43,831 nucleotides of DNA from a virus (Duplodnaviria; Heunggongvirae; Uroviricota; Caudoviricetes), in the IMG/VR virus record IMGVR_UViG_2711768019_000013; one strand, 5' to 3'. The translations under genes and the position numbers were made by a program. Under the pieces are notes generated by a model that did not search any database, was not told the DNA's origin, and saw nothing but the letters and a program-made list of their open reading frames with translations. This document shows, one piece after another, positions 17,193 through 32,028 of the stretch. Each line of letters starts with the position of its first letter. The stretch's first letter is position 1.

Positions 17193-18503
17193 TTAAATCC
17201 GAAGTGATGTGACTCTTCCGGTCGGTTTGACAATAGGGAATTGCTTAACGATGAAATAACCTCCGGCATCATTCGGGTGATCATTGCCAGATTTTTTATC
17301 AGGCTCCCCCTTCTCATCCCAGACCTGTTGCTCCAGAGATTCGGCATATAACGGGCAACGCTTCACATTAACTTTATAGCGACGCTCACCATTGGCATTG
17401 CAGAACATTGCATTCATTGAGTTAACGCGATCTTTTACTGGCGGGTTCGAGCTGTTCACCACAACGTTAAAACCAGCCTGCTTAAGCTGGGCTATATCCG
17501 TCGTACTTGCGTTACTTGATTTTCTGGAATCCCCGGAAGCATCTGGATAAATATAAATTTCCCTCACTTTCCGGTAATCATTCCCATCATACAGCCAGAA
17601 GCGTTCTTTAATGATGCGGATCATATCCGGCGTATCGTAGGCATTGATGATTTCAGTTACCGCACATGGAAGCCCCAAACGCAGCACATGGACGATTCCC
17701 GCCATCTTTCCAACGTTAAAATCCATCCCAATATAAATCGGCTCCCCTGGCTGCTCCACTTCTTCGCAATTATTCAGTTTCCGGTCAAACTGATGGTAAA
17801 CAGTACCACTTGTCAGGTTAGTAAACTGTCCTCGAAGATAGGCTTTAATCAGCTCTGGAGGGTATGATTCAAGAAGCGAAGGAATGTAATCTGCTGGCAG
17901 GTTCTTTTCATTATCGAAAGTAGATGCCTGCACCAGACCATACAGTGAGGCCAGCTCTGTTTTTTCACGCACGGCTTTAACAAACTGCTCGTAGACAAAT
18001 TTGAATCCTTCCGGCGTGGTTGTAACGTCAATACCGTTGCGAAGTCCATCAATCTTATAACGCATACGTGCAATTATCTTGCGCCACGCCGTTCTGGCTT
18101 TTTCCTTCGGCAAAATGTCCAGTTCATCCACCAACGCATTACCAATTTTGAAACCGACGATCGTTTGTGGCTTCTCCATCGATCTGCAGATAGTGGTTCC
18201 CCGATACTGGCGTCCGTAATAAAAGTGAACCTCTTTATTTCCCTCATTAATTTTTACGTTCAATCCCCAGTCAGCAGCAACTTCTTCCACTGTAGGGTAA
18301 AAAATATCGCGAATTTGGGGATACGTTGGCGCAAAATATCCCTGATTTATACCTGGATGCTCCCAAATCCCCTTGCATATGCCGCCACACCCAACCCATG
18401 TTTTGCCCGAGCCAAAACCAGCAATATAGGCTTTAAATTTATGGGGCATTGAAAGAAATCGCGCCTGAGGCACATTAAGCGTCGGAGAGATCATCTTCAT
18501 CAC
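17193..18503 (-). CDS. Terminase large subunit
   Basis: Walker A-like AGFGSGKT near the N-terminus; 436 aa; acidic nuclease-type motifs later. Confidence 0.75.
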   Translation of the reverse strand: MMKMISPTLNVPQARFLSMPHKFKAYIAGFGSGKTWVGCGGICKGIWEHPGINQGYFAPTYPQIRDIFYPTVEEVAADWGLNVKINEGNKEVHFYYGRQYRGTTICRSMEKPQTIVGFKIGNALVDELDILPKEKARTAWRKIIARMRYKIDGLRNGIDVTTTPEGFKFVYEQFVKAVREKTELASLYGLVQASTFDNEKNLPADYIPSLLESYPPELIKAYLRGQFTNLTSGTVYHQFDRKLNNCEEVEQPGEPIYIGMDFNVGKMAGIVHVLRLGLPCAVTEIINAYDTPDMIRIIKERFWLYDGNDYRKVREIYIYPDASGDSRKSSNASTTDIAQLKQAGFNVVVNSSNPPVKDRVNSMNAMFCNANGERRYKVNVKRCPLYAESLEQQVWDEKGEPDKKSGNDHPNDAGGYFIVKQFPIVKPTGRVTSLRI

Positions 18504-19569
18504 TCCTTACTCTGGCATCAACCACATTAATATTGATCGCCACAGGCTGGGGATGTTCATTATCTTCCACCGTTTCGATCTCTTTGCGCAGCTTCTGGTT
18601 TTCCATTCTGCGCCGTTCAATTTCCAGTTCCCGTAGCCGCTTATCTGCACATAAAGCCCCGCCAGCAGAAAACAAACGCAACAATTCACGCCGGGCGGCA
18701 GCCTTATCCTCCAGCAGGATCTCAACGCCGAATTTTCCGAATTTTGCCCCTGCATATAATTGCCGCGCATCCCCATCAAGCAGAGTGGTATCAGCCATAT
18801 AAAGCTGTCCCGTTCCCTCACCGCAGCACTTCGGGCAGTCCGGATTGGGTATGGCGTTATCAACAAAGCCGAGGCCTCCATATTCCGGTTCGGGTTTGCC
18901 ATCTCTGGAAGCCTGCGCCGCTGCCTTGTCGAATTCTGCTATATCGCGCCACTGGTAGAGATGATTCTCGCCCCAGCAATAACGGCAGTTAACACGGCGA
19001 AATTGTGCAAGCTGATTGGGGTCGGCCAGGACAATAGCCATCAACTGACTCACTAGTAAATCCAGGTCTGCGGTATAGCGTTTCTGGTACTGATTGCGGA
19101 AGTAGCTGATAGCGCGAAAAACCCTGGCATTTCTAAGCATACGACTGGCGTTGCTGTTAGCTGTCGCACCTTGCCCCTCATAACCGGCTAGTCGGTACGC
19201 CTCTGTCGGCTTTTTACCCTGAGCAACAAGCATCGCAAACTTAGCCTGCTGGTCAGAAATGCCGAATTCATCGGGACAGAACGAAAATTCCTCCGCGTCG
19301 CCCTCATTCAGGCCCGCATCGAATACTGGCTTTTTTTCCTGAGATTTTTCGTTCCGCTTTTGTGCAGTCTGCGCAGATTTTTTCTGCGCACTTTTTTGCG
19401 CAGTTTTGCACATTTCTGTCTGCGCATTTTTCGGAGTTTTTTTGATGTAACGACGGGCTGTTGCGTAATTCAGTCCCCTTGCTTCACACCATGCCACCGG
19501 AGATATACCGGAGCGGGTGTATTCAGCAATATACTCCTGCTGCAACGCCCCCCAGTCCGGTCTGCTCAT
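18475..19569 (-). CDS. Terminase small subunit (Terminase_2-like) with HTH N-terminus and low-complexity linker
   Basis: N-terminal HTH-like segment; KKSAQ-type repeats; ...EAYRLAGYEGQGATANSNASRMLRNARV... recalls small-terminase motifs. Confidence 0.55.
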   Translation of the reverse strand: MSRPDWGALQQEYIAEYTRSGISPVAWCEARGLNYATARRYIKKTPKNAQTEMCKTAQKSAQKKSAQTAQKRNEKSQEKKPVFDAGLNEGDAEEFSFCPDEFGISDQQAKFAMLVAQGKKPTEAYRLAGYEGQGATANSNASRMLRNARVFRAISYFRNQYQKRYTADLDLLVSQLMAIVLADPNQLAQFRRVNCRYCWGENHLYQWRDIAEFDKAAAQASRDGKPEPEYGGLGFVDNAIPNPDCPKCCGEGTGQLYMADTTLLDGDARQLYAGAKFGKFGVEILLEDKAAARRELLRLFSAGGALCADKRLRELEIERRRMENQKLRKEIETVEDNEHPQPVAININVVDARVRSDEDDLSDA

Positions 19570-19572
19570 CAG

Positions 19573-19824
19573 TTAGTCCTGATTTTTATCCACCCTGAGT
19601 AGTTCGCGCAGAGCAAAGGCATCCCCTTTTCTGGCAAGCTTAAACAATGCCGCTCGTAACTCGGCTTCACCTTTCGCTCTGCCCTTACGGATGGCCGCAT
19701 AAAAATCTGTCATTGCTTCCCGATTTTCTTTCAGTCGGTTCAGATCAACATCCAGAACGTCAGCGATTTGTTGTGCAGTCATCCGGCACGCTGCCAGAGA
19801 CTCGACTTTCGAATACGGAATCAT
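19573..19824 (-). CDS. Small HTH-like protein upstream of terminase (possible start at ATG 19782, MTAQQIADVLDV)
   Basis: 83-aa ORF; the track start overlaps the upstream gene by 65 nt. Confidence 0.35.
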   Translation of the reverse strand: MIPYSKVESLAACRMTAQQIADVLDVDLNRLKENREAMTDFYAAIRKGRAKGEAELRAALFKLARKGDAFALRELLRVDKNQD

Positions 19825-20692
19825 TTGTCACCCCCATTGATATGCAGGGTGTCTTCTTCCTGTATTTTTCGTGAAGGATTTTTACTGCAGCGTTGTTCCA
19901 GGTGACCTGATGGTGAATGCGTTTATGACTGGCACCCATAAGTGAGATTTTTACGCACGACGGCGCATACATGACGGAGTAAAAACTTTTAACGTAGGTT
20001 CCGGAATCCAGATACAGCTCGGTCATTCCGCCGCTGTTTTTCTGCGTCTGTTTCTGCCCTAACTGGACAGCACCGATCGTCATAAACAATTCACCACAGC
20101 GACCGAGATTCGTGTACGTATTCACATCCTCGTTAATGCGCCCCATGAATGAGAACGGTCGATCAACCGAACAGATAAAGCTGTTCATTGCCTTGCGTTT
20201 CACCCACGAAGCATGGCCGCCATTGTCACCAAGAAAATCCCCGCCCTGCGACATAGCGATGGAAAGAGCAGGTATTGATTCGTAGTACGCAAGCATTTCA
20301 GAAAGGATCTCATCCAGTTTCCTTATCGGGAAATAGGCCTGGTCATAGTTGCGATCCACCCGAAACTGGAACTCGTGATAATCATCATCGAGCTGAATGA
20401 AGTATTTACACCCGACCAGTTTTGCCTGGTCGAAACAGGCATTACGGGCGTAAAAAATTGAGCGGCGGTCACTAAAATTATCGGCTTCGTCAAAACGACT
20501 AGCAATATCGGCTTTGGAAAATACCAGCACCTGTTCACCAAATTCAGCCATGTACTGATGCCGTGTCTTATCTTCATCATCAACAACGATAAAAATTTTC
20601 CCGGTATAGCCAGCACGACGCAACGTCCGGTAAGTCAGAACTTTGTCCGGTCGCCCGTGAGTCAGAATAAAGGCGCAAAAATCATCACGCAT
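19760..20692 (-). CDS. GT-A fold (family 2-like) glycosyltransferase-like protein
   Basis: CAFILTHGRPDKV...KIFIVVDDEDK and later KYFIQLDDDY match the GT2 N-terminal strand, DD and DxD motifs as I remember them; start ATG 20692 overlaps the ParB-like stop (ATGCGTGA) with GGAGGAGG upstream. Confidence 0.5.
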   Translation of the reverse strand: MRDDFCAFILTHGRPDKVLTYRTLRRAGYTGKIFIVVDDEDKTRHQYMAEFGEQVLVFSKADIASRFDEADNFSDRRSIFYARNACFDQAKLVGCKYFIQLDDDYHEFQFRVDRNYDQAYFPIRKLDEILSEMLAYYESIPALSIAMSQGGDFLGDNGGHASWVKRKAMNSFICSVDRPFSFMGRINEDVNTYTNLGRCGELFMTIGAVQLGQKQTQKNSGGMTELYLDSGTYVKSFYSVMYAPSCVKISLMGASHKRIHHQVTWNNAAVKILHEKYRKKTPCISMGVTNDSVFESRVSGSVPDDCTTNR

Positions 20693-21473
20693 ATTCCTCC
20701 TCCCCGCCATGCATGATCTCCACCATGCGCTGCGTCATTCGGACAAATCCATTTTCAATAGCCTGCTGATAATCAATGATCACCAGCGCCGACTCCTCGA
20801 AAAGGCACTGAATTTCAGCGGGGGCATGAGCGTAATAGTCCGCAATTCTGCTGAAATTAAACACCGTGTGACGTTCTGCTGCACACAGGAGGAATTTCTC
20901 AATATCAGGATCAAGGGACGCCGAACGTATCCGGCTGATCAGCTCCTGAGTTTTCGTATCGTCGTACAGTTCACTGATATCCGGTTTACCGCCTGACGGC
21001 TCATAAACAGGCGTATCAATTTTCGTCGTATACGGCTCCTCCTCATTTCCTGTACCGGGCAAAACATCCGTCAACAGTTCATCAATTTCTGCCGGGATGA
21101 AGCCTGTCAGGGAGACATCAAAATCAGCATTGATTAGGTCCGACAGCTCCATCCGCAACAGATCTTCATCCCAGCCAGCATTCATCGGCAGGCGATTATC
21201 TGCCAGGCGGTACGCCTTTTTCTGCTCATCCGTCAGGCCAGACAGAACAATGACCGGAACAGAATCCATTTTGAGCATTTCAGCCGCCATAACACGACCG
21301 TGACCCGCAATAATTTCGCCCTTTTCGTCAATCAGCACCGGATTAGTCCAGCCGAATTGCTTAATACTTTCTACCAGTTGTGCCACCTGCTCAGTACTGT
21401 GCGTCCTGGCGTTGTGCGCATACGGTGACAATTCTTGTAATGGGCGATAGACTATCTTTAATTTCTCGCTCAT
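20685..21473 (-). CDS. ParB-like nuclease domain protein
   Basis: N-terminal ...NPVLIDEKGEIIAGHGRVMAAEML... matches the ParB/sulfiredoxin N-domain pattern; acidic C-terminus. Confidence 0.65.
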   Translation of the reverse strand: MSEKLKIVYRPLQELSPYAHNARTHSTEQVAQLVESIKQFGWTNPVLIDEKGEIIAGHGRVMAAEMLKMDSVPVIVLSGLTDEQKKAYRLADNRLPMNAGWDEDLLRMELSDLINADFDVSLTGFIPAEIDELLTDVLPGTGNEEEPYTTKIDTPVYEPSGGKPDISELYDDTKTQELISRIRSASLDPDIEKFLLCAAERHTVFNFSRIADYYAHAPAEIQCLFEESALVIIDYQQAIENGFVRMTQRMVEIMHGGEEEYA

Positions 21474-21490: not shown

Positions 21491-21525
21491 ATAAAACGCA
21501 CCCCAGCAGCCAGTGCTACTGGGGG
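21491..21525 (-). terminator. Rho-independent terminator downstream of trkG
   Basis: Plus-strand ccccagcag-ccagtg-ctactgggg hairpin (one mismatch) preceded by ataaaacgca, i.e. stem then U-rich tract on the minus strand. Confidence 0.5.
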
Positions 21526-21610: not shown

Positions 21611-23068
21611 TTAGGAGCGCCAAAAAAAACCTGAAAACAATATAATAACAGGATAAATTTCAAGGCGACCAAGAATCATAGCTATGCACATTAAATATTT
21701 TGCAATGTCATTAAGCACTCCGAATGACGATGCAGTAGCCCCAAAACCTAATCCCATATTATTAATACATGCAGCCACTGTTGCAAATGATGTAAGAAAA
21801 TCATATCCCATACCATTTAACACCAGTATAAAAAACACCGTGAAGAGAGTATAAAGAAAAAAGAAACTCCATACAGACCTCATTACACGATCTGTAACTA
21901 TCTTCCCTCCTACATTTACACTCAACAACGCTCTGGGATGAGAAAGCTGATTTATCTCGTGTTTGCTTTGTTTGAAAAGTATAAGAAATCGAAGTGACTT
22001 AATTCCACCACAGGTTGAACCTATACATCCCCCAAAGAAACTTGACAACAGCAAAAACACTATCGTGTGCGTGGGCCAGTTTGCATAATCCTGCGTAGCT
22101 AAACCATTATCAGTGAGCATGGAGCTGGCAAGAAAAAACGAATGAATAAAACTTCCATGCAAGTCATACATACCTATATGCCAGACCTGGAAAGAGGTAA
22201 CAATGATCACCCCTAAGGCTATTAACAGAAAGAAACGAAGTTCAATATCTCTGATTAAAGGTTTTATCGTTTTTCTGCTAATAACAATATACCAAAGAGT
22301 GAAGTTGAAAGCCGATAGCAGGGAAAAAGAACCAGCCACCAGCTCAACCAAATAGTTATTAAAATATCCGATACTCTCGCTATGAGTTGAGAAACCACCA
22401 AGCGAAACTGTGGAAATCCCGTGACAAATAGCATCAAACAAAGGCATTCCTGCAAGTCTATAACAGACAATACAAGCAATACCTAATAAAGAATAAGTTA
22501 TCCACAGTGTCCGTGACGTATCGGCCAGGCGGGGAGTGAGTTTGTCATCCTTAAATGGCCCCGGCATTTCTGACTGATAAAGCTTTGCACCACCAATACC
22601 CAATAATGGCAATACTGCAACCGCCAGAACAATAACTCCTAAACCACCTATAAAATTTAACTGTGACCGATAGTACAAATATGCCCGAGGTAATGAACTA
22701 ACATCATCAATTACAGTTGCTCCTGTTGTTGTTATTCCAGAAACCCCTTCAAACAGAGCATCAATGAACGTTAAATTAAGTTCTGAGTCAATCCATAAAG
22801 GGAATGCACTAATAACAGAAAACAAAATCCAAAACATTACAATTATAATAAACCCATCACGGGTACGTAATTGAATGCCAGATTTCTTAGTTGTATACCA
22901 CGCTCCGCCACCAATGCAAAAAAATATAACGAAAGTTATAAAGAAAACGAACAGGCTTTTTTCTTTATAAAACAATGCTACAACCATTGGTGGCAACATT
23001 GAAAGACTATAGAGCCAAACCAGGAACCCACACATATGAGTAACAACTCTTACATGAGATGTATTCAT
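21611..23068 (-). CDS. trkG: Potassium uptake protein TrkG (TrkH family), start at MNTSHVRV
   Basis: Multi-pass membrane protein with repeated pore-loop-like GGxG segments; I recognise it as the Rac-encoded trkG; markedly AT-rich compared with flanking phage genes. Confidence 0.85.
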   Translation of the reverse strand: MNTSHVRVVTHMCGFLVWLYSLSMLPPMVVALFYKEKSLFVFFITFVIFFCIGGGAWYTTKKSGIQLRTRDGFIIIVMFWILFSVISAFPLWIDSELNLTFIDALFEGVSGITTTGATVIDDVSSLPRAYLYYRSQLNFIGGLGVIVLAVAVLPLLGIGGAKLYQSEMPGPFKDDKLTPRLADTSRTLWITYSLLGIACIVCYRLAGMPLFDAICHGISTVSLGGFSTHSESIGYFNNYLVELVAGSFSLLSAFNFTLWYIVISRKTIKPLIRDIELRFFLLIALGVIIVTSFQVWHIGMYDLHGSFIHSFFLASSMLTDNGLATQDYANWPTHTIVFLLLSSFFGGCIGSTCGGIKSLRFLILFKQSKHEINQLSHPRALLSVNVGGKIVTDRVMRSVWSFFFLYTLFTVFFILVLNGMGYDFLTSFATVAACINNMGLGFGATASSFGVLNDIAKYLMCIAMILGRLEIYPVIILFSGFFWRS

Positions 23069-23205
23069 ATCTAAATATTCTTTCAATTATAACCACCTTG
23101 CTGCAATATTATGATTATACTGTATAAAATTTAACTCCTCTTAGATCTTACTTCACTGTTCCTTATGAAACAATCATCAAAATGAATCATATTGTAGTTA
23201 AGATT

Positions 23206-23670
23206 TTACTTTAAACACTGCTCGGTTATGTATTGCTGAGCACCTTCAAGTTGGGCCTGCATCATTACCAGTCGTTCCCGGAGGGTGAAATAATCCCGTT
23301 CAGCGGTGTCTGCCAGTCGGGGGGAGGCTGCATTATCCACGCCGGAGGCGGTGGTGGCTTCACGCACTGACTGACAGACTGCTTTGATGTGCAACCGACG
23401 ACGACCAGCGGCAACATCATCACGCAGAGCATCATTTTCAGCTTTCGCATCAGCTAACTCCTTCGTGTATTTTGCATCGAGCGCAGCAACATCACGCTGA
23501 CGCATCTGCATGTCAGTAATTGCCGCGTTCGCCAGCTTCAGTTCTCTGGCATTTTTGTCGCGCTGGGCTTTGTAGGTAATGGCGTTATCACGGTAATGAT
23601 TAACAGCCCATGACAGGCAGACGATGATGCAGATAACCAGAGCGGAGATAATCGCGGTTACTCTGTTCAT
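23206..23670 (-). CDS. Rz: i-spanin Rz
   Basis: [23 protein letters not shown]... N-terminal transmembrane segment then coiled coil; ATG overlaps the endolysin stop (ATGA). Confidence 0.8.
23265..23450 (-). CDS. Rz1: o-spanin Rz1 (lipoprotein) embedded in Rz
   Basis: [23 protein letters not shown]... lipobox VVGC, proline-rich ([18 protein letters not shown]); encoded in the +1 frame inside Rz. Confidence 0.8.
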
Positions 23671-24164
23671 TGCTGACCCCACAAACAGATTTCACGCTCA
23701 ATCTCACGACGAGTCATGAGACCTTTCCATTGCTTACCGCCAGCATATGTCCAGCGACGTAGCTGATCACATGCGCCTTTGATATCGCCCTGGTTTATTT
23801 TGCGAAGAAGCGTCGATGTTCTGAAATTGCCAGCGCCCACGTTGTAAACGAACGAGTAAAGAGCGCCGCGCGTTGTTTCCGGTATATCGACTTTGATGTA
23901 CGGGTTAATTTGTCTGGCGACAGTGGCAAGGTCTTTATTCAAGAGTGTTTTGCATTCTGCTTTGGTATACGTTTTACCGAGCATGATGTCTTTTCCTGTA
24001 TGCCCGTGACATACAGTCCATACACCAACAATATCTTTGTATGGTATGTAGCTGACACCTTCCAGACCATCGTTACCACTTGGGCCAGTGATTAACACTG
24101 ATGCTATAGCAATTGCTCCGCCACCAATAGCAGCAGCAACGACTTTTCGTAATGATGGAGGCAT
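23667..24164 (-). CDS. SAR endolysin (phage 21 R-like lysozyme)
   Basis: N-terminal signal-anchor-release segment [18 protein letters not shown] then a lysozyme domain (…[13 protein letters not shown]…); near-identical to my memory of R21. Confidence 0.85.
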
Positions 24165-24630: not shown

Positions 24631-25026
24631 CTAACCTCGCATGTCAAAGCCAGATTTCTGAAAATCTCTGTAGACTTCCGGATTGTTGAAGGCCGGAAAT
24701 TTGGCTTTATGAGCTGCGGACTTTATCGCTTCGCAATAGGCTTTATCACCGTTACTGGTAGATATTTTTAACGCCGTGCCATCCTGAGAGAATTCCATAT
24801 GCAACCTGCATTTTTTCCCTTTCCAGTTATGCGGCTCATCAAGTTTGGCATTAATTGCAGCTCTGATTCCCCGCGCTTGCGCCCCCCATTCATCCTGATC
24901 ATCCCAGCGTCCTGAACTGCAACTACCTGTAGCAGTAGTTTTGTGGCAATCTGAAGGGTGTAAAGGTGTGCATCCCGCAACAAAACCGACCCAAAAAGTC
25001 AACATAACGATTTTCTTTAATCCCAC
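24631..25026 (-). CDS. Lipoprotein with divergent TolA domain III-like C-terminus (GTG start)
   Basis: Signal peptide MGLKKIVMLTFWVGFVAGC (lipobox VAGC); C-terminal WKGKKCRLHMEFSQDGTALKISTSNGDKAYCEAIKSAAHKAKFPAFNNPEVYRDFQKSGFDMRG parallels the neighbouring paralogue; GAGGAG 6 nt before the GTG. Confidence 0.6.
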   Translation of the reverse strand: MGLKKIVMLTFWVGFVAGCTPLHPSDCHKTTATGSCSSGRWDDQDEWGAQARGIRAAINAKLDEPHNWKGKKCRLHMEFSQDGTALKISTSNGDKAYCEAIKSAAHKAKFPAFNNPEVYRDFQKSGFDMRG

Positions 25027-25176: not shown

Positions 25177-25605
25177 TCAGGGTTTAAAATCCAGCACCCC
25201 ATTTTGAAATACTTTATATACTTCCGGCGAAGGGGGGGCAGGTATATCAGCATTCTTTATCGCATTCATCGCTTCACGACATAAATCGAGGTCTCCACTT
25301 TCTCTTTTAACCTCCAGTAGAAGGCCATTCGGGGCCATATGCATTCTCAGTGTACACTCTTTTCCTGAATACTTACTCGCATCCCCGAACTGTTTTTCGA
25401 TGGCGCTCTTGATTTGATGGGCATACAGACGGATATCCTCACTAACATCAGAAGTACGTTCAGATGAACTCACATACTGTGTCTCTATTGCTTTATCGGA
25501 GTAATATGATGTACGGTCATGATAATTTGTCGATACAGCATCAGTGCACCCGATAATAATCCCACTAATAATCAACGTAAGAATTGATGCGCTACGAAAA
25601 CCCAT
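25177..25605 (-). CDS. Lipoprotein with TolA domain III-like C-terminus
   Basis: Signal peptide with lipobox IIGC; YAHQIKSAIEKQFGDASKYSGKECTLRMHMAPNGLLLEVKRESGDLDLCREAMNAIKNADIPAPPSPEVYKVFQNGVLDFKP closely matches the E. coli TolA C-terminus as I remember it (…AGQIKSAIESKFYDASSYAGKTCTLRIKLAPDGMLLDIKPEGGDPALCQAALAAAKLAKIPKPPSQAVYEVFKNAPLDFKP). Confidence 0.7.
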   Translation of the reverse strand: MGFRSASILTLIISGIIIGCTDAVSTNYHDRTSYYSDKAIETQYVSSSERTSDVSEDIRLYAHQIKSAIEKQFGDASKYSGKECTLRMHMAPNGLLLEVKRESGDLDLCREAMNAIKNADIPAPPSPEVYKVFQNGVLDFKP

Positions 25606-29850: not shown

Positions 29851-30852
29851 TTAGTAATCTGCGTGTTTCGCACTTTTCAGAAATGCTTTCATATTTTCAT
29901 TAGGTCGCTCAATTTCGAAGTTACTTCCATATAACTCTTGTAATTTTGGCCATAACTTACTTAATAACCCTCTCCTGCGATAAAATGGATGTATCCAAAC
30001 GGTAGATAGGTACGGAGAATTTGCATTTGAATTGTTTATTGTGACCAGCCCAACTAAACATTGTCGATAACCACTATTATCCATTGATTGTATTTCTTCG
30101 ACGAATGGATACGCGATTACATCAGTCCAACCATGATCGGTTGTATCCCATTGCATTCCGTCATGACATTCCTTCGACTGATAGCGGCGTAAAGCTACAC
30201 ACGCGAGCTTTTGCCAATCTGGAGAATTAATTGTGATCTCTTCATCGTATGACGCGCCTATTGGAGCGGGTATTGGTCTGATTAATCCAGCATGGCATTC
30301 ATCATAGAACTTCATGTTTCCCTCAGAAACGTTGTGTACGTTGGGTTGCTCCATGTGTGCGCCATTCAAAAATAGCTCTGATAGTAGTGTATCTACACTG
30401 TAATCTTTATTGATTATTGTCGGCTTAGAGTTTTTCTTATTAAGGCCGCGAGTAACGATTTTTTGATCAATGTTAACAACATGGAATAATCCGTCGGGGA
30501 GGCTAGCGAACCACGATGGGGCATCGGACCAGAATAGCATGCCTTTTGTACTTCTTAAGAGTTTAATTAAGTTAATACAAGCTTCTTCACTAGTCTTGCC
30601 GTTGATGCGAAGTATGTTAGGACTAAAGTAATATTCATCCATATCAGGGAATGCAGCTTCGCAAAACTCCTGTACATAATTTAGCACCTGGATTCTACAG
30701 AGATCATCATAGCTGGTAATAACTAAGGGGGTATCTTCATTACTATTATGATTATCAATAATGCAATCTATAGCGAGACTTACTGCTTTGCGTATCACTT
30801 CAGTTGAATCTAACGACTCTAAAAATTTTGTCTTTCGTGTGCGAATATCCAT
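29851..30852 (-). CDS. Hypothetical protein (333 aa), second gene of an AT-rich two-gene operon; C-terminal region weakly GNAT acetyltransferase-like
   Basis: Start ATG 30852 lies 15 nt after the ORF A stop; C-terminal ...CLVGLVTINNSNANSPYLSTVWIHPFYRRRGLLSKLWPKL... resembles GNAT motif A (compare RimI FQRRGLG); N-terminal 200 aa unrecognised; low GC. Confidence 0.55.
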   Translation of the reverse strand: MDIRTRKTKFLESLDSTEVIRKAVSLAIDCIIDNHNSNEDTPLVITSYDDLCRIQVLNYVQEFCEAAFPDMDEYYFSPNILRINGKTSEEACINLIKLLRSTKGMLFWSDAPSWFASLPDGLFHVVNIDQKIVTRGLNKKNSKPTIINKDYSVDTLLSELFLNGAHMEQPNVHNVSEGNMKFYDECHAGLIRPIPAPIGASYDEEITINSPDWQKLACVALRRYQSKECHDGMQWDTTDHGWTDVIAYPFVEEIQSMDNSGYRQCLVGLVTINNSNANSPYLSTVWIHPFYRRRGLLSKLWPKLQELYGSNFEIERPNENMKAFLKSAKHADY

Positions 30853-30867
30853 GTATGACCTGCGCTA

Positions 30868-31890
30868 TTAAAATTCATGAATGAACGGTTTGTCATCTGG
30901 TTGCAAAATGGTGGTTTTATTCGTTGCTACATTTAAACTGTTGTAGAGCATAATTGCCAGGTTCGATGCATTTTCAATCAGCGTTTCAAGATCCTGGTCT
31001 GTAATCACTACGAGGTTCCCTTCTTTATCCTTTCCACCACGATGCACTAAGTGATTTCGATTGAGGGTTGCCAATTCAATAGCTTCTATCGGACAGTCTT
31101 TTTGTACTTTTATATCGAATGTAGCTTCATAGCGGTCGATTACCTTTTTAGTGCTATGCCAGCTTGCACTGATCAAGTGTTCCTTGATTGACCTGATTAG
31201 CTCTCCCCTAATTTTCTCGATGGGTTCACCCTTGAAAGGCAACGCAGCAATATCTTTGCTTACTTTAAATTCAGTCTTACCTTTTTCTATACAATTGGCT
31301 ATGTAGACATCATCTTTCTCTATAGAATTAATGAATAGCTCAACATAAAGCGTTTCCAAAGCTGTAATAACATTCGTGTAGAGCAAACTAAGCAAGTGGT
31401 TTTTTTGCTGTTGTTCAGTTTTATCTTTTGCAAGTTTTTTTATTTTATCGATATTATCAATGAATTTTAAATACGGATTACCGGAAGACGTTACAGCGTC
31501 GTAGATATCATCATCGTACCAATCATCTATATTATTTGAGTTTCCAGACCAGTCAAAACATTGTGTTTGTAATTCATCTACTAATTCCTCAATATACTCA
31601 GATTTAACATATTGACCGAAGATGGATTGTAGTTCTTCGCTCGCATCATACGGCCCGCCATATATGTAAGCATAGCCACCTTCTCTACTTTCATACGGAC
31701 AAGCATTTGCCGGATCTTCAAAGTTTTCAAAGAACCAGTTTTTCATTACTTCGAGTTGATCTTTTTTGCTTATGTATTTTAAAGATTTTAGTGGAACTTT
31801 CTTTCCATTAACCTCGAAAACAATTTTCACGATGTAACGCTCCCTTGTATCAATTGCGCAACTATTATACCACAGCGAAATACAGGGCAT
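30868..31890 (-). CDS. Hypothetical protein (340 aa), first gene of the AT-rich two-gene operon; C-terminal R-x4-H (HEPN-like) motif
   Basis: Strong AAGGAGG Shine-Dalgarno 6 nt before ATG 31890 (MPCISLWYNSC...); C-terminal ...ATLNRNHLVHRGG... fits the Rx4-6H pattern; no family recognised by eye; low GC. Confidence 0.55.
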   Translation of the reverse strand: MPCISLWYNSCAIDTRERYIVKIVFEVNGKKVPLKSLKYISKKDQLEVMKNWFFENFEDPANACPYESREGGYAYIYGGPYDASEELQSIFGQYVKSEYIEELVDELQTQCFDWSGNSNNIDDWYDDDIYDAVTSSGNPYLKFIDNIDKIKKLAKDKTEQQQKNHLLSLLYTNVITALETLYVELFINSIEKDDVYIANCIEKGKTEFKVSKDIAALPFKGEPIEKIRGELIRSIKEHLISASWHSTKKVIDRYEATFDIKVQKDCPIEAIELATLNRNHLVHRGGKDKEGNLVVITDQDLETLIENASNLAIMLYNSLNVATNKTTILQPDDKPFIHEF

Positions 31891-31928
31891 AACCTGCCTC
31901 CTTAAACTAACATACCATGAGCCAGCAA

Positions 31929-31954
31929 TGTCCGCTATTGGCACAAAGCGGACA
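31929..31954. promoter_or_regulatory. Perfect 8-10-8 inverted repeat (TGTCCGCT-N10-AGCGGACA) upstream of ORF A; candidate operator
   Basis: Plus-strand tgtccgct attggcacaa agcggaca at 31929-31954, about 40 nt upstream of the ORF A start on the minus strand; not followed by a U-run, so not a terminator. Confidence 0.4.
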
Positions 31955-32028
31955 ACCACGCTAGCTCTCCCCTGTGCCAGAAAAATGTCAATTTACATAT
32001 GAACTAATGCTCTTTGATCTAGTAACGT

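Follow-up and report, generated by a model that had tools for sequence, protein, structure and literature searches.

Introduction

Only in 2025-2026 was a phage enzyme of DNA modification, a thymine dioxygenase, shown to be activated by ParB-like proteins (PMC13229309; bioRxiv 10.1101/2025.08.14.668559). In those systems, 5mYOX176/ParB176 and their relatives, the gene for the DNA-modifying enzyme lies beside the gene for the ParB-like protein. Activation of the neighboring dioxygenase is specific for double-stranded DNA and requires both the N- and C-terminal domains of the ParB-like protein, and in the predicted 5mYOX-ParB complex the ParB C-terminus is close to a C-terminal extension of the enzyme (PMC13229309). 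It was proposed earlier that phage ParBs guide modification enzymes to DNA during packaging. Here we describe a similar gene neighborhood in a 43,831-nucleotide stretch of viral DNA, IMG/VR record IMGVR_UViG_2711768019_000013 (the window), in which a gene for a ParB-like protein of like architecture overlaps a glycosyltransferase (GT) gene. The enzyme of this pair is a GT of the TAGT family, whereas that of the 5mYOX/ParB systems is a dioxygenase. This suggests that the ParB partnership extends from dioxygenases to glycosyltransferases.

The closest described relatives of the enzyme are the phage 5-hydroxymethylcytosine (5hmC) glycosyltransferases of the TAGT/GT-A type (PMC8256090; bioRxiv 10.1101/2023.12.21.572611) and trypanosome JGT. 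They share the Pfam family PF20691, the GT-A fold, and the R...DDD...ED motif pattern with the GT described here. The 5hmC glycosyltransferases are encoded together with a C5-methyltransferase and a 5mYOX, or with a thymidylate-synthase-type hydroxymethylase. None of these accompanies the GT clade described here. Unlike the 5hmC glycosyltransferases, the members of this clade continue into an additional C-terminal extension of ~57 aa that is basic and conserved. The beta-glucosyl-HMC-alpha-glucosyltransferase of T2/T6, which is the source of the name of PHROG 842, has the DDD motif in common with this GT. The T6 enzyme is biochemically known (PMC13390438); it adds a second glucose onto glucosyl-hmC and its gene lies beside that for dCMP hydroxymethylase. 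In animals, GREB1 shares the catalytic domain family, and PGAP names the GT described here a "GREB1-related protein". GREB1 is a large eukaryotic protein without a ParB partner and is reported to O-GlcNAcylate estrogen receptor alpha (PMC7968844).

On the side of the partner, a closely related ParB-like N-terminal domain occurs in phage ParB/DNA-methyltransferase fusions, which a survey found to be strongly enriched in prophage regions (PMC12704722). In those fusions the ParB domain is covalently attached to the enzyme, whereas here it is joined to a novel domain, and the enzyme, encoded by an overlapping gene, is a protein of its own.

Results

The ParB-like and GT genes overlap and are inherited together

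An earlier reading of the window from its letters alone (the sequence-only reading) had described a ParB-like nuclease-domain gene translationally coupled to a GT gene, upstream of the terminase genes. Both open reading frames (ORFs) lie on the minus strand where it had placed them (Table 1), and a small ORF, terS, terL, and the portal gene follow directly downstream. It had also described the TGA of the first gene as overlapping the ATG of the second. The overlap is real, and it is 8 nt long (ATGCGTGA, 20692-20685) rather than a 4-nt overlap of the ATGA type. A Shine-Dalgarno run (GGGGAGGAGG) precedes the GT start. A mechanical GT ORF opens at the ATG at 20710 and encodes 316 aa, and PGAP calls a 310-aa form. 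Because all the GT homologues compared begin with MRDDF and PGAP uses the 310-aa form, the start was assigned to ATG 20692-20690, in agreement with the sequence-only reading. The 8-nt overlap is consistent with coupled translation. Since the GT start lies within the end of the partner gene, the GT and its partner are probably made together.

The survey of this arrangement covered loci taken from viral contigs and, for genomes, one per species. In all of these loci, the ORF directly upstream of the GT ORF is the ParB-like one. Among 72 distinct junctions, 66 overlap (46 by 8 nt, 19 by 11 nt, and one by 17 nt) and four abut. The hosts include Enterobacteriaceae, Bacteroides, Muribaculaceae, Desulfovibrionaceae, Prosthecochloris, Faecousia, Planctomycetaceae, Saccharibacteria, and Acidimicrobiaceae. 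In Lactobacillus phage c5 the pair (ORF1/ORF2) comes directly after the cos site, in Lactobacillus phage phi jlb1 the ParB gene jlb1_024 is beside the GT gene jlb1_025, in Nocardia phage NTR1 orf1/orf2 are followed by terL, and in the haloarchaeal virus HHTV-2 genes 21/22 overlap by 11 nt. Two more metagenomic contigs with independent gene calls have the same arrangement. Because adjacency and overlap recur in 72 junctions from unrelated hosts, the arrangement is not due to chance. The pairwise identities of the GT and of its partner correlate as well (r 0.84). Adjacency in all loci and overlap in nearly all junctions mean that the pair is conserved as a unit, a point on which the earlier proposal could have failed.

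Downstream of the pair are genes for small and large terminases, which belong to three or more unrelated families (Terminase_6N, Terminase_3, and GpA), followed by portals. Upstream of it, in distant loci, are miscellaneous replication genes. With terminase families that vary and replication genes upstream, the pair moves as a module, yet it stays in front of the packaging genes. The pair of Vibrio phage pv27 is found among primase, exonuclease, and helicase genes.

No fusion of the ParB-like protein to the GT was found in the loci, among the best 150 matches to the partner's C-terminal domain, or in the longer architectures checked. The only fusions found join a methyltransferase to either partner. 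In a Hyphomonadaceae contig (L113, 3581-5272), which also has a second GT copy, a class-I S-adenosylmethionine methyltransferase-like domain with weak Pfam scores lies at the C-terminus of the TAGT GT. An Ignavibacteriae contig (L103, 189-1736) has a ParB-like protein with a similar domain, again with weak scores, at its N-terminus. These fusions hint at further tailoring of the product.

The GT belongs to the TAGT family of GT-A enzymes

The GT had been likened to family-2 glycosyltransferases by two motifs. Both are present, KIFIVVDDEDK at residues 32-42 and QLDDDY at residues 100-105, and the GT-A fold, another point on which the earlier proposal could have failed, is borne out, as is a conserved DxD motif. 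By Pfam, the family is TAGT rather than family 2. The GT matches PF20691 with 118.8 bits (cut-off 27.5, E 4.1e-34) over profile positions 4-205 of 205, and its homologues in c5, HHTV-2, and NTR1 are also above the threshold of this family. It matches PHROG 842 with an E of 8e-104, and the viral models nearest to it are those of TAGT-domain proteins, followed by beta-glucosyl-HMC-alpha-GT. The fold is that of the nucleotide-diphospho-sugar transferases (GT-A), and the fold matches include SunS and glycogenin, which are peptide/protein GT-A enzymes. A PDB sequence search with the GT profile found nothing, and NCBIfam and PADLOC have no model that matches the GT.

T6 ggt also passes the PF20691 threshold, with 35.8 bits, and this shared family is the only link between the two enzymes; no direct sequence similarity was found by hmmsearch or hhalign. 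Because the T6 enzyme is too distant to align, the label "beta-glucosyl-HMC-alpha-glucosyltransferase" on relatives of the GT is a transferred name that carries no evidence of activity.

In 31 GT sequences, with identities down to 59%, R14, D102-D103-D104, Y105, N187-E188-D189, and H260-H261 are invariant. The R...DDD...ED pattern matches that of the tested phage GT-A DNA glycosyltransferases (bioRxiv 10.1101/2023.12.21.572611). The GT has the fold and the invariant nucleotide-sugar and metal motifs of an active enzyme.

The conserved extension beyond the catalytic core has G231, T232, Y233, K235, F237, Y238, P244, R258, H260, H261, W265, and K279 as its invariant residues. Residues 216-285 have an isoelectric point (pI) of 9.7, and the extension modeled alone has a low model-confidence (pLDDT) score. 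Only the Escherichia/Shigella-type copies among those sampled continue into a further tail. The other homologues stop at ~288 aa, about 22 codons earlier, and abut the next ORF or overlap it by 4 nt. Loss of a stop codon may account for the tail. In the window, this next ORF (19573-19824, minus strand) matches part of a terS PHROG.

A metagenomic phage with the pair (L126) has, in addition, four tandem family-2 GT genes after its capsid gene (17837-20316; three clear matches and one faint). They recall virion-glycosylation clusters, and one phage can carry both kinds of GT.

The partner has a ParB/Srx-fold domain and a conserved C-terminal domain

The N-terminal domain of the partner has the ParB/Srx fold and matches the ParB_N profile (PF02195) with 29.3 bits (cut-off 26.3). 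The partner also matches PHROG 620 with an E of 1.7e-90. Its description as ParB-like therefore stands, while "nuclease" is a legacy label only. The same domain matches PHROG 498 (E 6e-51) and the N-terminus of the PADLOC model MTase_II (E 1.5e-38). Features of the canonical partition ParBs, namely a GERR box II and a central helix-turn-helix (HTH) parS-binding domain together with ParA, were not found. Box II of the partner is G57-H58-G59-R60, of which G57, G59, and R60 are invariant and H58 nearly so across the family. No HTH family matches the partner, its score against TIGR00180 (38.1) is below the cut-off of 58.45, and no parA is annotated in the prophage. The partner is also strongly acidic (pI 4.5, net charge -24). 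Most of its relatives are acidic too, and the GTs are mostly basic. The pairing of a GT with a DNA-binding or nuclease domain, as the sequence-only reading put it, holds for the ParB-like fold and does not extend to a recognizable DNA-binding domain.

The partner agrees with the published description of the 5mYOX-associated ParBs, which have a ParB nucleotide-binding domain, an unstructured segment, a C-terminal domain, and no DNA-binding domain. In those proteins Q52 is replaced by N and E93 by H or D. The partner has N at the Q52 position (N21, in its box I region) and H at the E93 position. The enzymes are alike in this respect as well, as both the 5mYOX enzyme and the GT have a C-terminal extension past the catalytic core. 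The linkers differ. That of the 5mYOX-associated ParBs is described as non-conserved, whereas the linker here has an invariant motif (Y148, T149, K151, P155, Y157, and P159), which is retained in Vibrio phage pv27 and Nocardia phage NTR1.

Beyond residue 135 the partner has no significant structural match, and residues 171-262 match no Pfam family and no structure. This part is nevertheless the better conserved one. In distant relatives the C-terminal part outscores the ParB domain by far. The motif plus the C-terminal part has a mean pairwise identity of 0.49, the sequence before the motif has one of 0.31, and the GT one of 0.57. In Vibrio phage pv27 (191 kb), the gene 5' of the GT gene encodes 139 aa with only the linker motif and the C-terminal domain (E 2e-45), without the ParB domain. 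A search with the C-terminal domain found 1194 clusters at 50% identity among 1.84 billion representatives. Nearly all of the best 150 matches place it at the C-terminus of proteins of ~230-340 aa, and some are stand-alone proteins of 128-160 aa. The constant partner of the GT is the C-terminal domain, rather than the ParB domain, which the sequence-only reading had missed.

The pair lies in the late operon of a Rac-like prophage

The window represents an intact E. coli prophage, lambdoid and Rac-like. Over the 2.2-kb region that surrounds the pair it is 100% identical to strain EC2 and other isolates, and similar DNA was found in 1619 of 5426 complete E. coli genomes, 867 of which have at least 80% of the region. 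Deposited Escherichia phage genomes also hold near-identical copies. On the minus strand, the order is a gene for a Q-like antiterminator (DUF1133), genes for TolA-C proteins, the lysis cassette (essD/rrrD/rzpD), trkG, the ParB-like gene, the GT gene, the small ORF, terS, terL, the portal gene, and the head and tail genes. Beyond the early region are recE/recT and an integrase gene on the plus strand, which reaches the right end of the window. The coordinates are given in Table 1.

A terminator-like hairpin lies between trkG and the ParB-like gene, and no convincing promoter was found upstream of the pair. From this layout, the pair is most likely transcribed from the Q-antiterminated late operon.

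Table 1. Features of the ParB-like/GT locus (window positions unless another contig is named)
Feature	Coordinates	Strand	Remarks
ParB-like partner gene (262 aa)	20685..21473	-	ORF; Pfam ParB_N; PHROG 620
ParB/Srx-fold N-terminal domain and helix-helix segment (aa 1-135)	21069..21473	-	Box II GHGR in place of GERR
Predicted disordered linker (aa 136-170)	20964..21068	-	pLDDT <50; motif Y-T-x-K-I-x-x-P-x-Y-E-P
Helical C-terminal domain (aa 171-262)	20688..20963	-	Unannotated; part always adjoining the GT
Coupling junction	20685..20705	-	Shine-Dalgarno GGGGAGGAGG 20705-20696; GT ATG 20692-20690; ParB TGA 20687-20685
GT gene (310 aa, TAGT-family GT-A; PGAP name GREB1-related protein)	19760..20692	-	ORF
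TAGT catalytic core (aa 14-228)	20009..20653	-	R14, DDD 102-104 (nt 20381-20389), N187-E188-D189
Basic C-terminal extension of the GT (aa 229-285)	19838..20008	-	Conserved, outside the Pfam model
~25-aa GT tail over the start of the next gene	19760..19837	-	Only in Escherichia/Shigella-type copies among those sampled
Small ORF	19782/19824..19573	-	PHROG 309 terS-like fragment, directly after the GT gene
terS	19569..18475	-	Downstream of the small ORF
terL	18503..17193	-	Downstream of terS, followed by the portal gene
Packaging context (small ORF, terS, terL)	17193..19824	-	Equivalent place next to terminases of other families in distant loci
Terminator-like hairpin between trkG and the ParB-like gene	21501..21524	-	10-bp stem, 7 GC pairs, T-run
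ynaK annotation loci	L001 21717-21974 (= window 21216-21473); L124 5378-5641		PGAP annotation

In the cryptic Rac prophage of K-12, only trkG and an 87-aa ParB-like fragment (ynaK) are left. The deletion took everything from about ParB codon 87 onward, including the GT, terminase, and head genes. The K-12 gene ydaY was considered as a remnant of the GT gene and rejected, since it sits in the tail region. Strain EC2 has the ParB-like gene intact (262 aa) and identical in sequence to the window copy, yet PGAP calls its first 86 codons a partial "ynaK" pseudogene. It seems that the K-12 reference name, which stands for a 5' remnant, causes the mis-annotation of full-length copies.

Several other features of the prophage were seen. 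The inserted trkG gene (21611-23086, minus strand; Pfam TrkH E 1e-144), which separates the lysis cassette from the ParB-like gene and has the hairpin after it, resembles cargo (a "moron") placed within the late operon, as in K-12 Rac. The Rz-like lysis gene (23206-23682, minus strand) has a nested Rz1-type ORF (23265-23450; 61 aa, proline-rich) in the usual spanin layout. Two ORFs on the minus strand, 24631-25026 and 25177-25605, lie just 5' of the holin gene. One of them (142 aa) has a Pfam TolA C-terminal domain, and the second is a TolA C-terminal domain protein according to the PGAP annotation. Between the replication and Nin-like regions are two adjacent minus-strand genes without an assigned function, 29851-30852 (333 aa) and 30868-31959 (363 aa). 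They lie in the lowest-GC part of the window (GC 0.37-0.39), have only sub-threshold matches (GNAT and a HEPN/RES N-terminal domain), and have no PADLOC match. They may be an accessory or defense cassette.

Discussion

We consider that the pair may be a late-expressed, ParB-assisted DNA glycosyltransferase module, a reading that we hold with evenly balanced confidence. The partner would act as an acidic ParB-like adaptor or activator of the TAGT-family GT. By analogy, its C-terminal domain and linker motif would dock onto the basic C-terminal extension of the GT, and its ParB/Srx domain would help the GT to engage double-stranded phage DNA. The GT would then move a sugar from a nucleotide-sugar donor to replicated phage DNA shortly before or during packaging, and the sugar would mark or protect the packaged genome.

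A DNA-modification role is favored over a structural one, as the sequence-only reading had proposed, because PF20691 holds known DNA-base glycosyltransferases. The contrast between a basic GT and an acidic partner also supports the DNA glycosyltransferase module, as does the place of the pair in the late operon, after the Q-like and lysis genes. Further support comes from the conservation of the pair as a unit, together with the correlated identities and the methyltransferase fusions, and from the likeness of the partner to the ParBs that activate thymine dioxygenases. The pv27 pair, among replication genes, is in a DNA context, and the N-terminal domain of the partner has a homologue in the domain that DNA methyltransferases carry as a fusion.

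Other findings weigh against this reading, and most of them concern the acceptor. The known TAGT-type DNA enzymes all need, to our knowledge, a hydroxyl acceptor, which may be 5hmC, 5-hydroxymethyluracil, or a sugar already attached to one of these. No 5mYOX/TET or hydroxymethylase gene was found in the prophage, and none for a dioxygenase or hydroxymethylase is annotated in the complete 31.8-kb genome of phage c5, in which the unassigned ORFs are all below ~210 aa. In 30 distant loci (183 proteins), no hydroxymethyl source is among the listed neighbor families (25 of 32-33), and unlisted families could hide single occurrences at most. There was also none within 10 kb on either side of the GT gene in two further contigs. 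The pair therefore lacks the association with a TET/JBP (5mYOX) dioxygenase or another hydroxymethyl-pyrimidine source that goes with TAGT enzymes, and it appears to be self-sufficient. Since no hydroxymethyl-pyrimidine enzyme is beside the pair, the acceptor differs from the usual one, or else the usual one comes from elsewhere. For want of such an enzyme, DNA glycosylation and the anti-restriction function that was suggested with it are roles that we infer. Also on this side are the family member GREB1, which glycosylates a protein (PMC7968844), the strong acidity of the partner and its lack of a recognizable DNA-binding domain, the Vibrio phages that dispense with the ParB domain, and the low confidence of the C-terminal halves in the models of both proteins.

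One alternative, which we think unlikely, is that the GT acts on protein and O-glycosylates virion or packaging proteins of the late operon, or the partner itself at its Tyr/Thr/Ser-rich linker motif. Such a role is consistent with the lack of a hydroxylated-base source, with the position of the pair by the head and packaging genes, and with the O-GlcNAcylation of a protein by the TAGT relative GREB1 (PMC7968844). The hydroxyl-rich motif, which is conserved, is part of a disordered segment beside the putative GT-binding domain. SunS and glycogenin are among the fold matches as well, although these matches reflect generic GT-A similarity. The partner argues the other way, as its type of N-terminal domain is elsewhere fused to DNA methyltransferases and similar ParBs activate DNA dioxygenases. 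The Vibrio-phage pair is in a replication module, away from structural genes, and no constant protein substrate is evident because the adjoining terminase and head families vary.

Another explanation, of similarly low probability, is that glycosylation proceeds without hydroxymethyl-pyrimidines. The sugar would be placed directly on a canonical base or on the backbone with the help of the ParB-like protein, or on the partner's own Tyr/Thr motif, with the C-terminal domain as a specificity subunit. If true, direct ParB-assisted addition of a sugar to a canonical base or the backbone would amount to an as yet undescribed chemistry of DNA modification.

It is quite improbable that the GT acts on hydroxymethylated or glycosylated bases that come from elsewhere, for example from co-infecting T-even-like phages, and so serves phage competition instead of self-protection. 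This would keep the known TAGT chemistry, and prophage GTs that act on invading genomes have been suggested earlier (bioRxiv 10.1101/2023.12.21.572611). The GT is, however, unlikely to be expressed in a lysogen because the pair lies in the late operon, behind a terminator, and lacks a convincing promoter of its own. Dairy Lactobacillus phages (c5 is annotated without integrase or repressor) and a haloarchaeal virus carry the pair too, and its conserved place at the packaging genes argues for the phage's own DNA as the target.

We give equally little credence to a role in packaging, in which the ParB-like protein would be a nuclease or DNA-handling factor of the terminase, like the HNH proteins of cos phages, and the GT would be secondary or regulatory. 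The location is what speaks for it, as almost all temperate-phage loci have the pair just 5' of terS/terL and c5 has it directly after cos, and databases carry the legacy annotation "ParB-like nuclease". The at least three unrelated terminase families found with the pair argue against a specific interaction with terminase. In addition, the Vibrio phages keep the GT and the C-terminal domain without the ParB domain, the catalytic motifs of the GT are invariant, and the partner is very acidic and has no DNA-binding domain.

Finally, modification of the host cell surface (seroconversion or superinfection exclusion, as by TarP or the Gtr systems), which the sequence-only reading had offered beside DNA modification, is very improbable, since the GT is a soluble protein with no flippase or membrane partner in the annotation, is a product of the late operon rather than of a gene expressed for lysogenic conversion, has an obligatory ParB-like partner, and is found with hosts of very different envelopes, including those of the Lactobacillus dairy phages and an archaeon.

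Both protein families of the pair are already cataloged, as Pfam TAGT, as the PGAP "GREB1-related protein", and as ParB/Srx, and ParB-assisted DNA modification is published as a general idea. An obligatory ParB-like/GT pair without a dioxygenase, the overlap geometry across phyla, and the C-terminal domain as the constant partner were not found in the searchable literature, which did not include the founding TAGT paper (Iyer et al. 2013).

The pair is common, as it occurs in E. coli genomes, dairy Lactobacillus phages, actinophages, gut Bacteroides prophages, and a haloarchaeal virus. It can be tested in E. coli, since the genes are in an E. coli prophage and an assay platform is already in existence. 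The answer would also be relevant to the sequencing, restriction behavior, and engineering of temperate phages. Because no hydroxymethyl-base pathway comes with the pair, finding the acceptor could reveal a new DNA or protein modification, and at the least its identity could explain the role of a widespread module beside the terminase genes.

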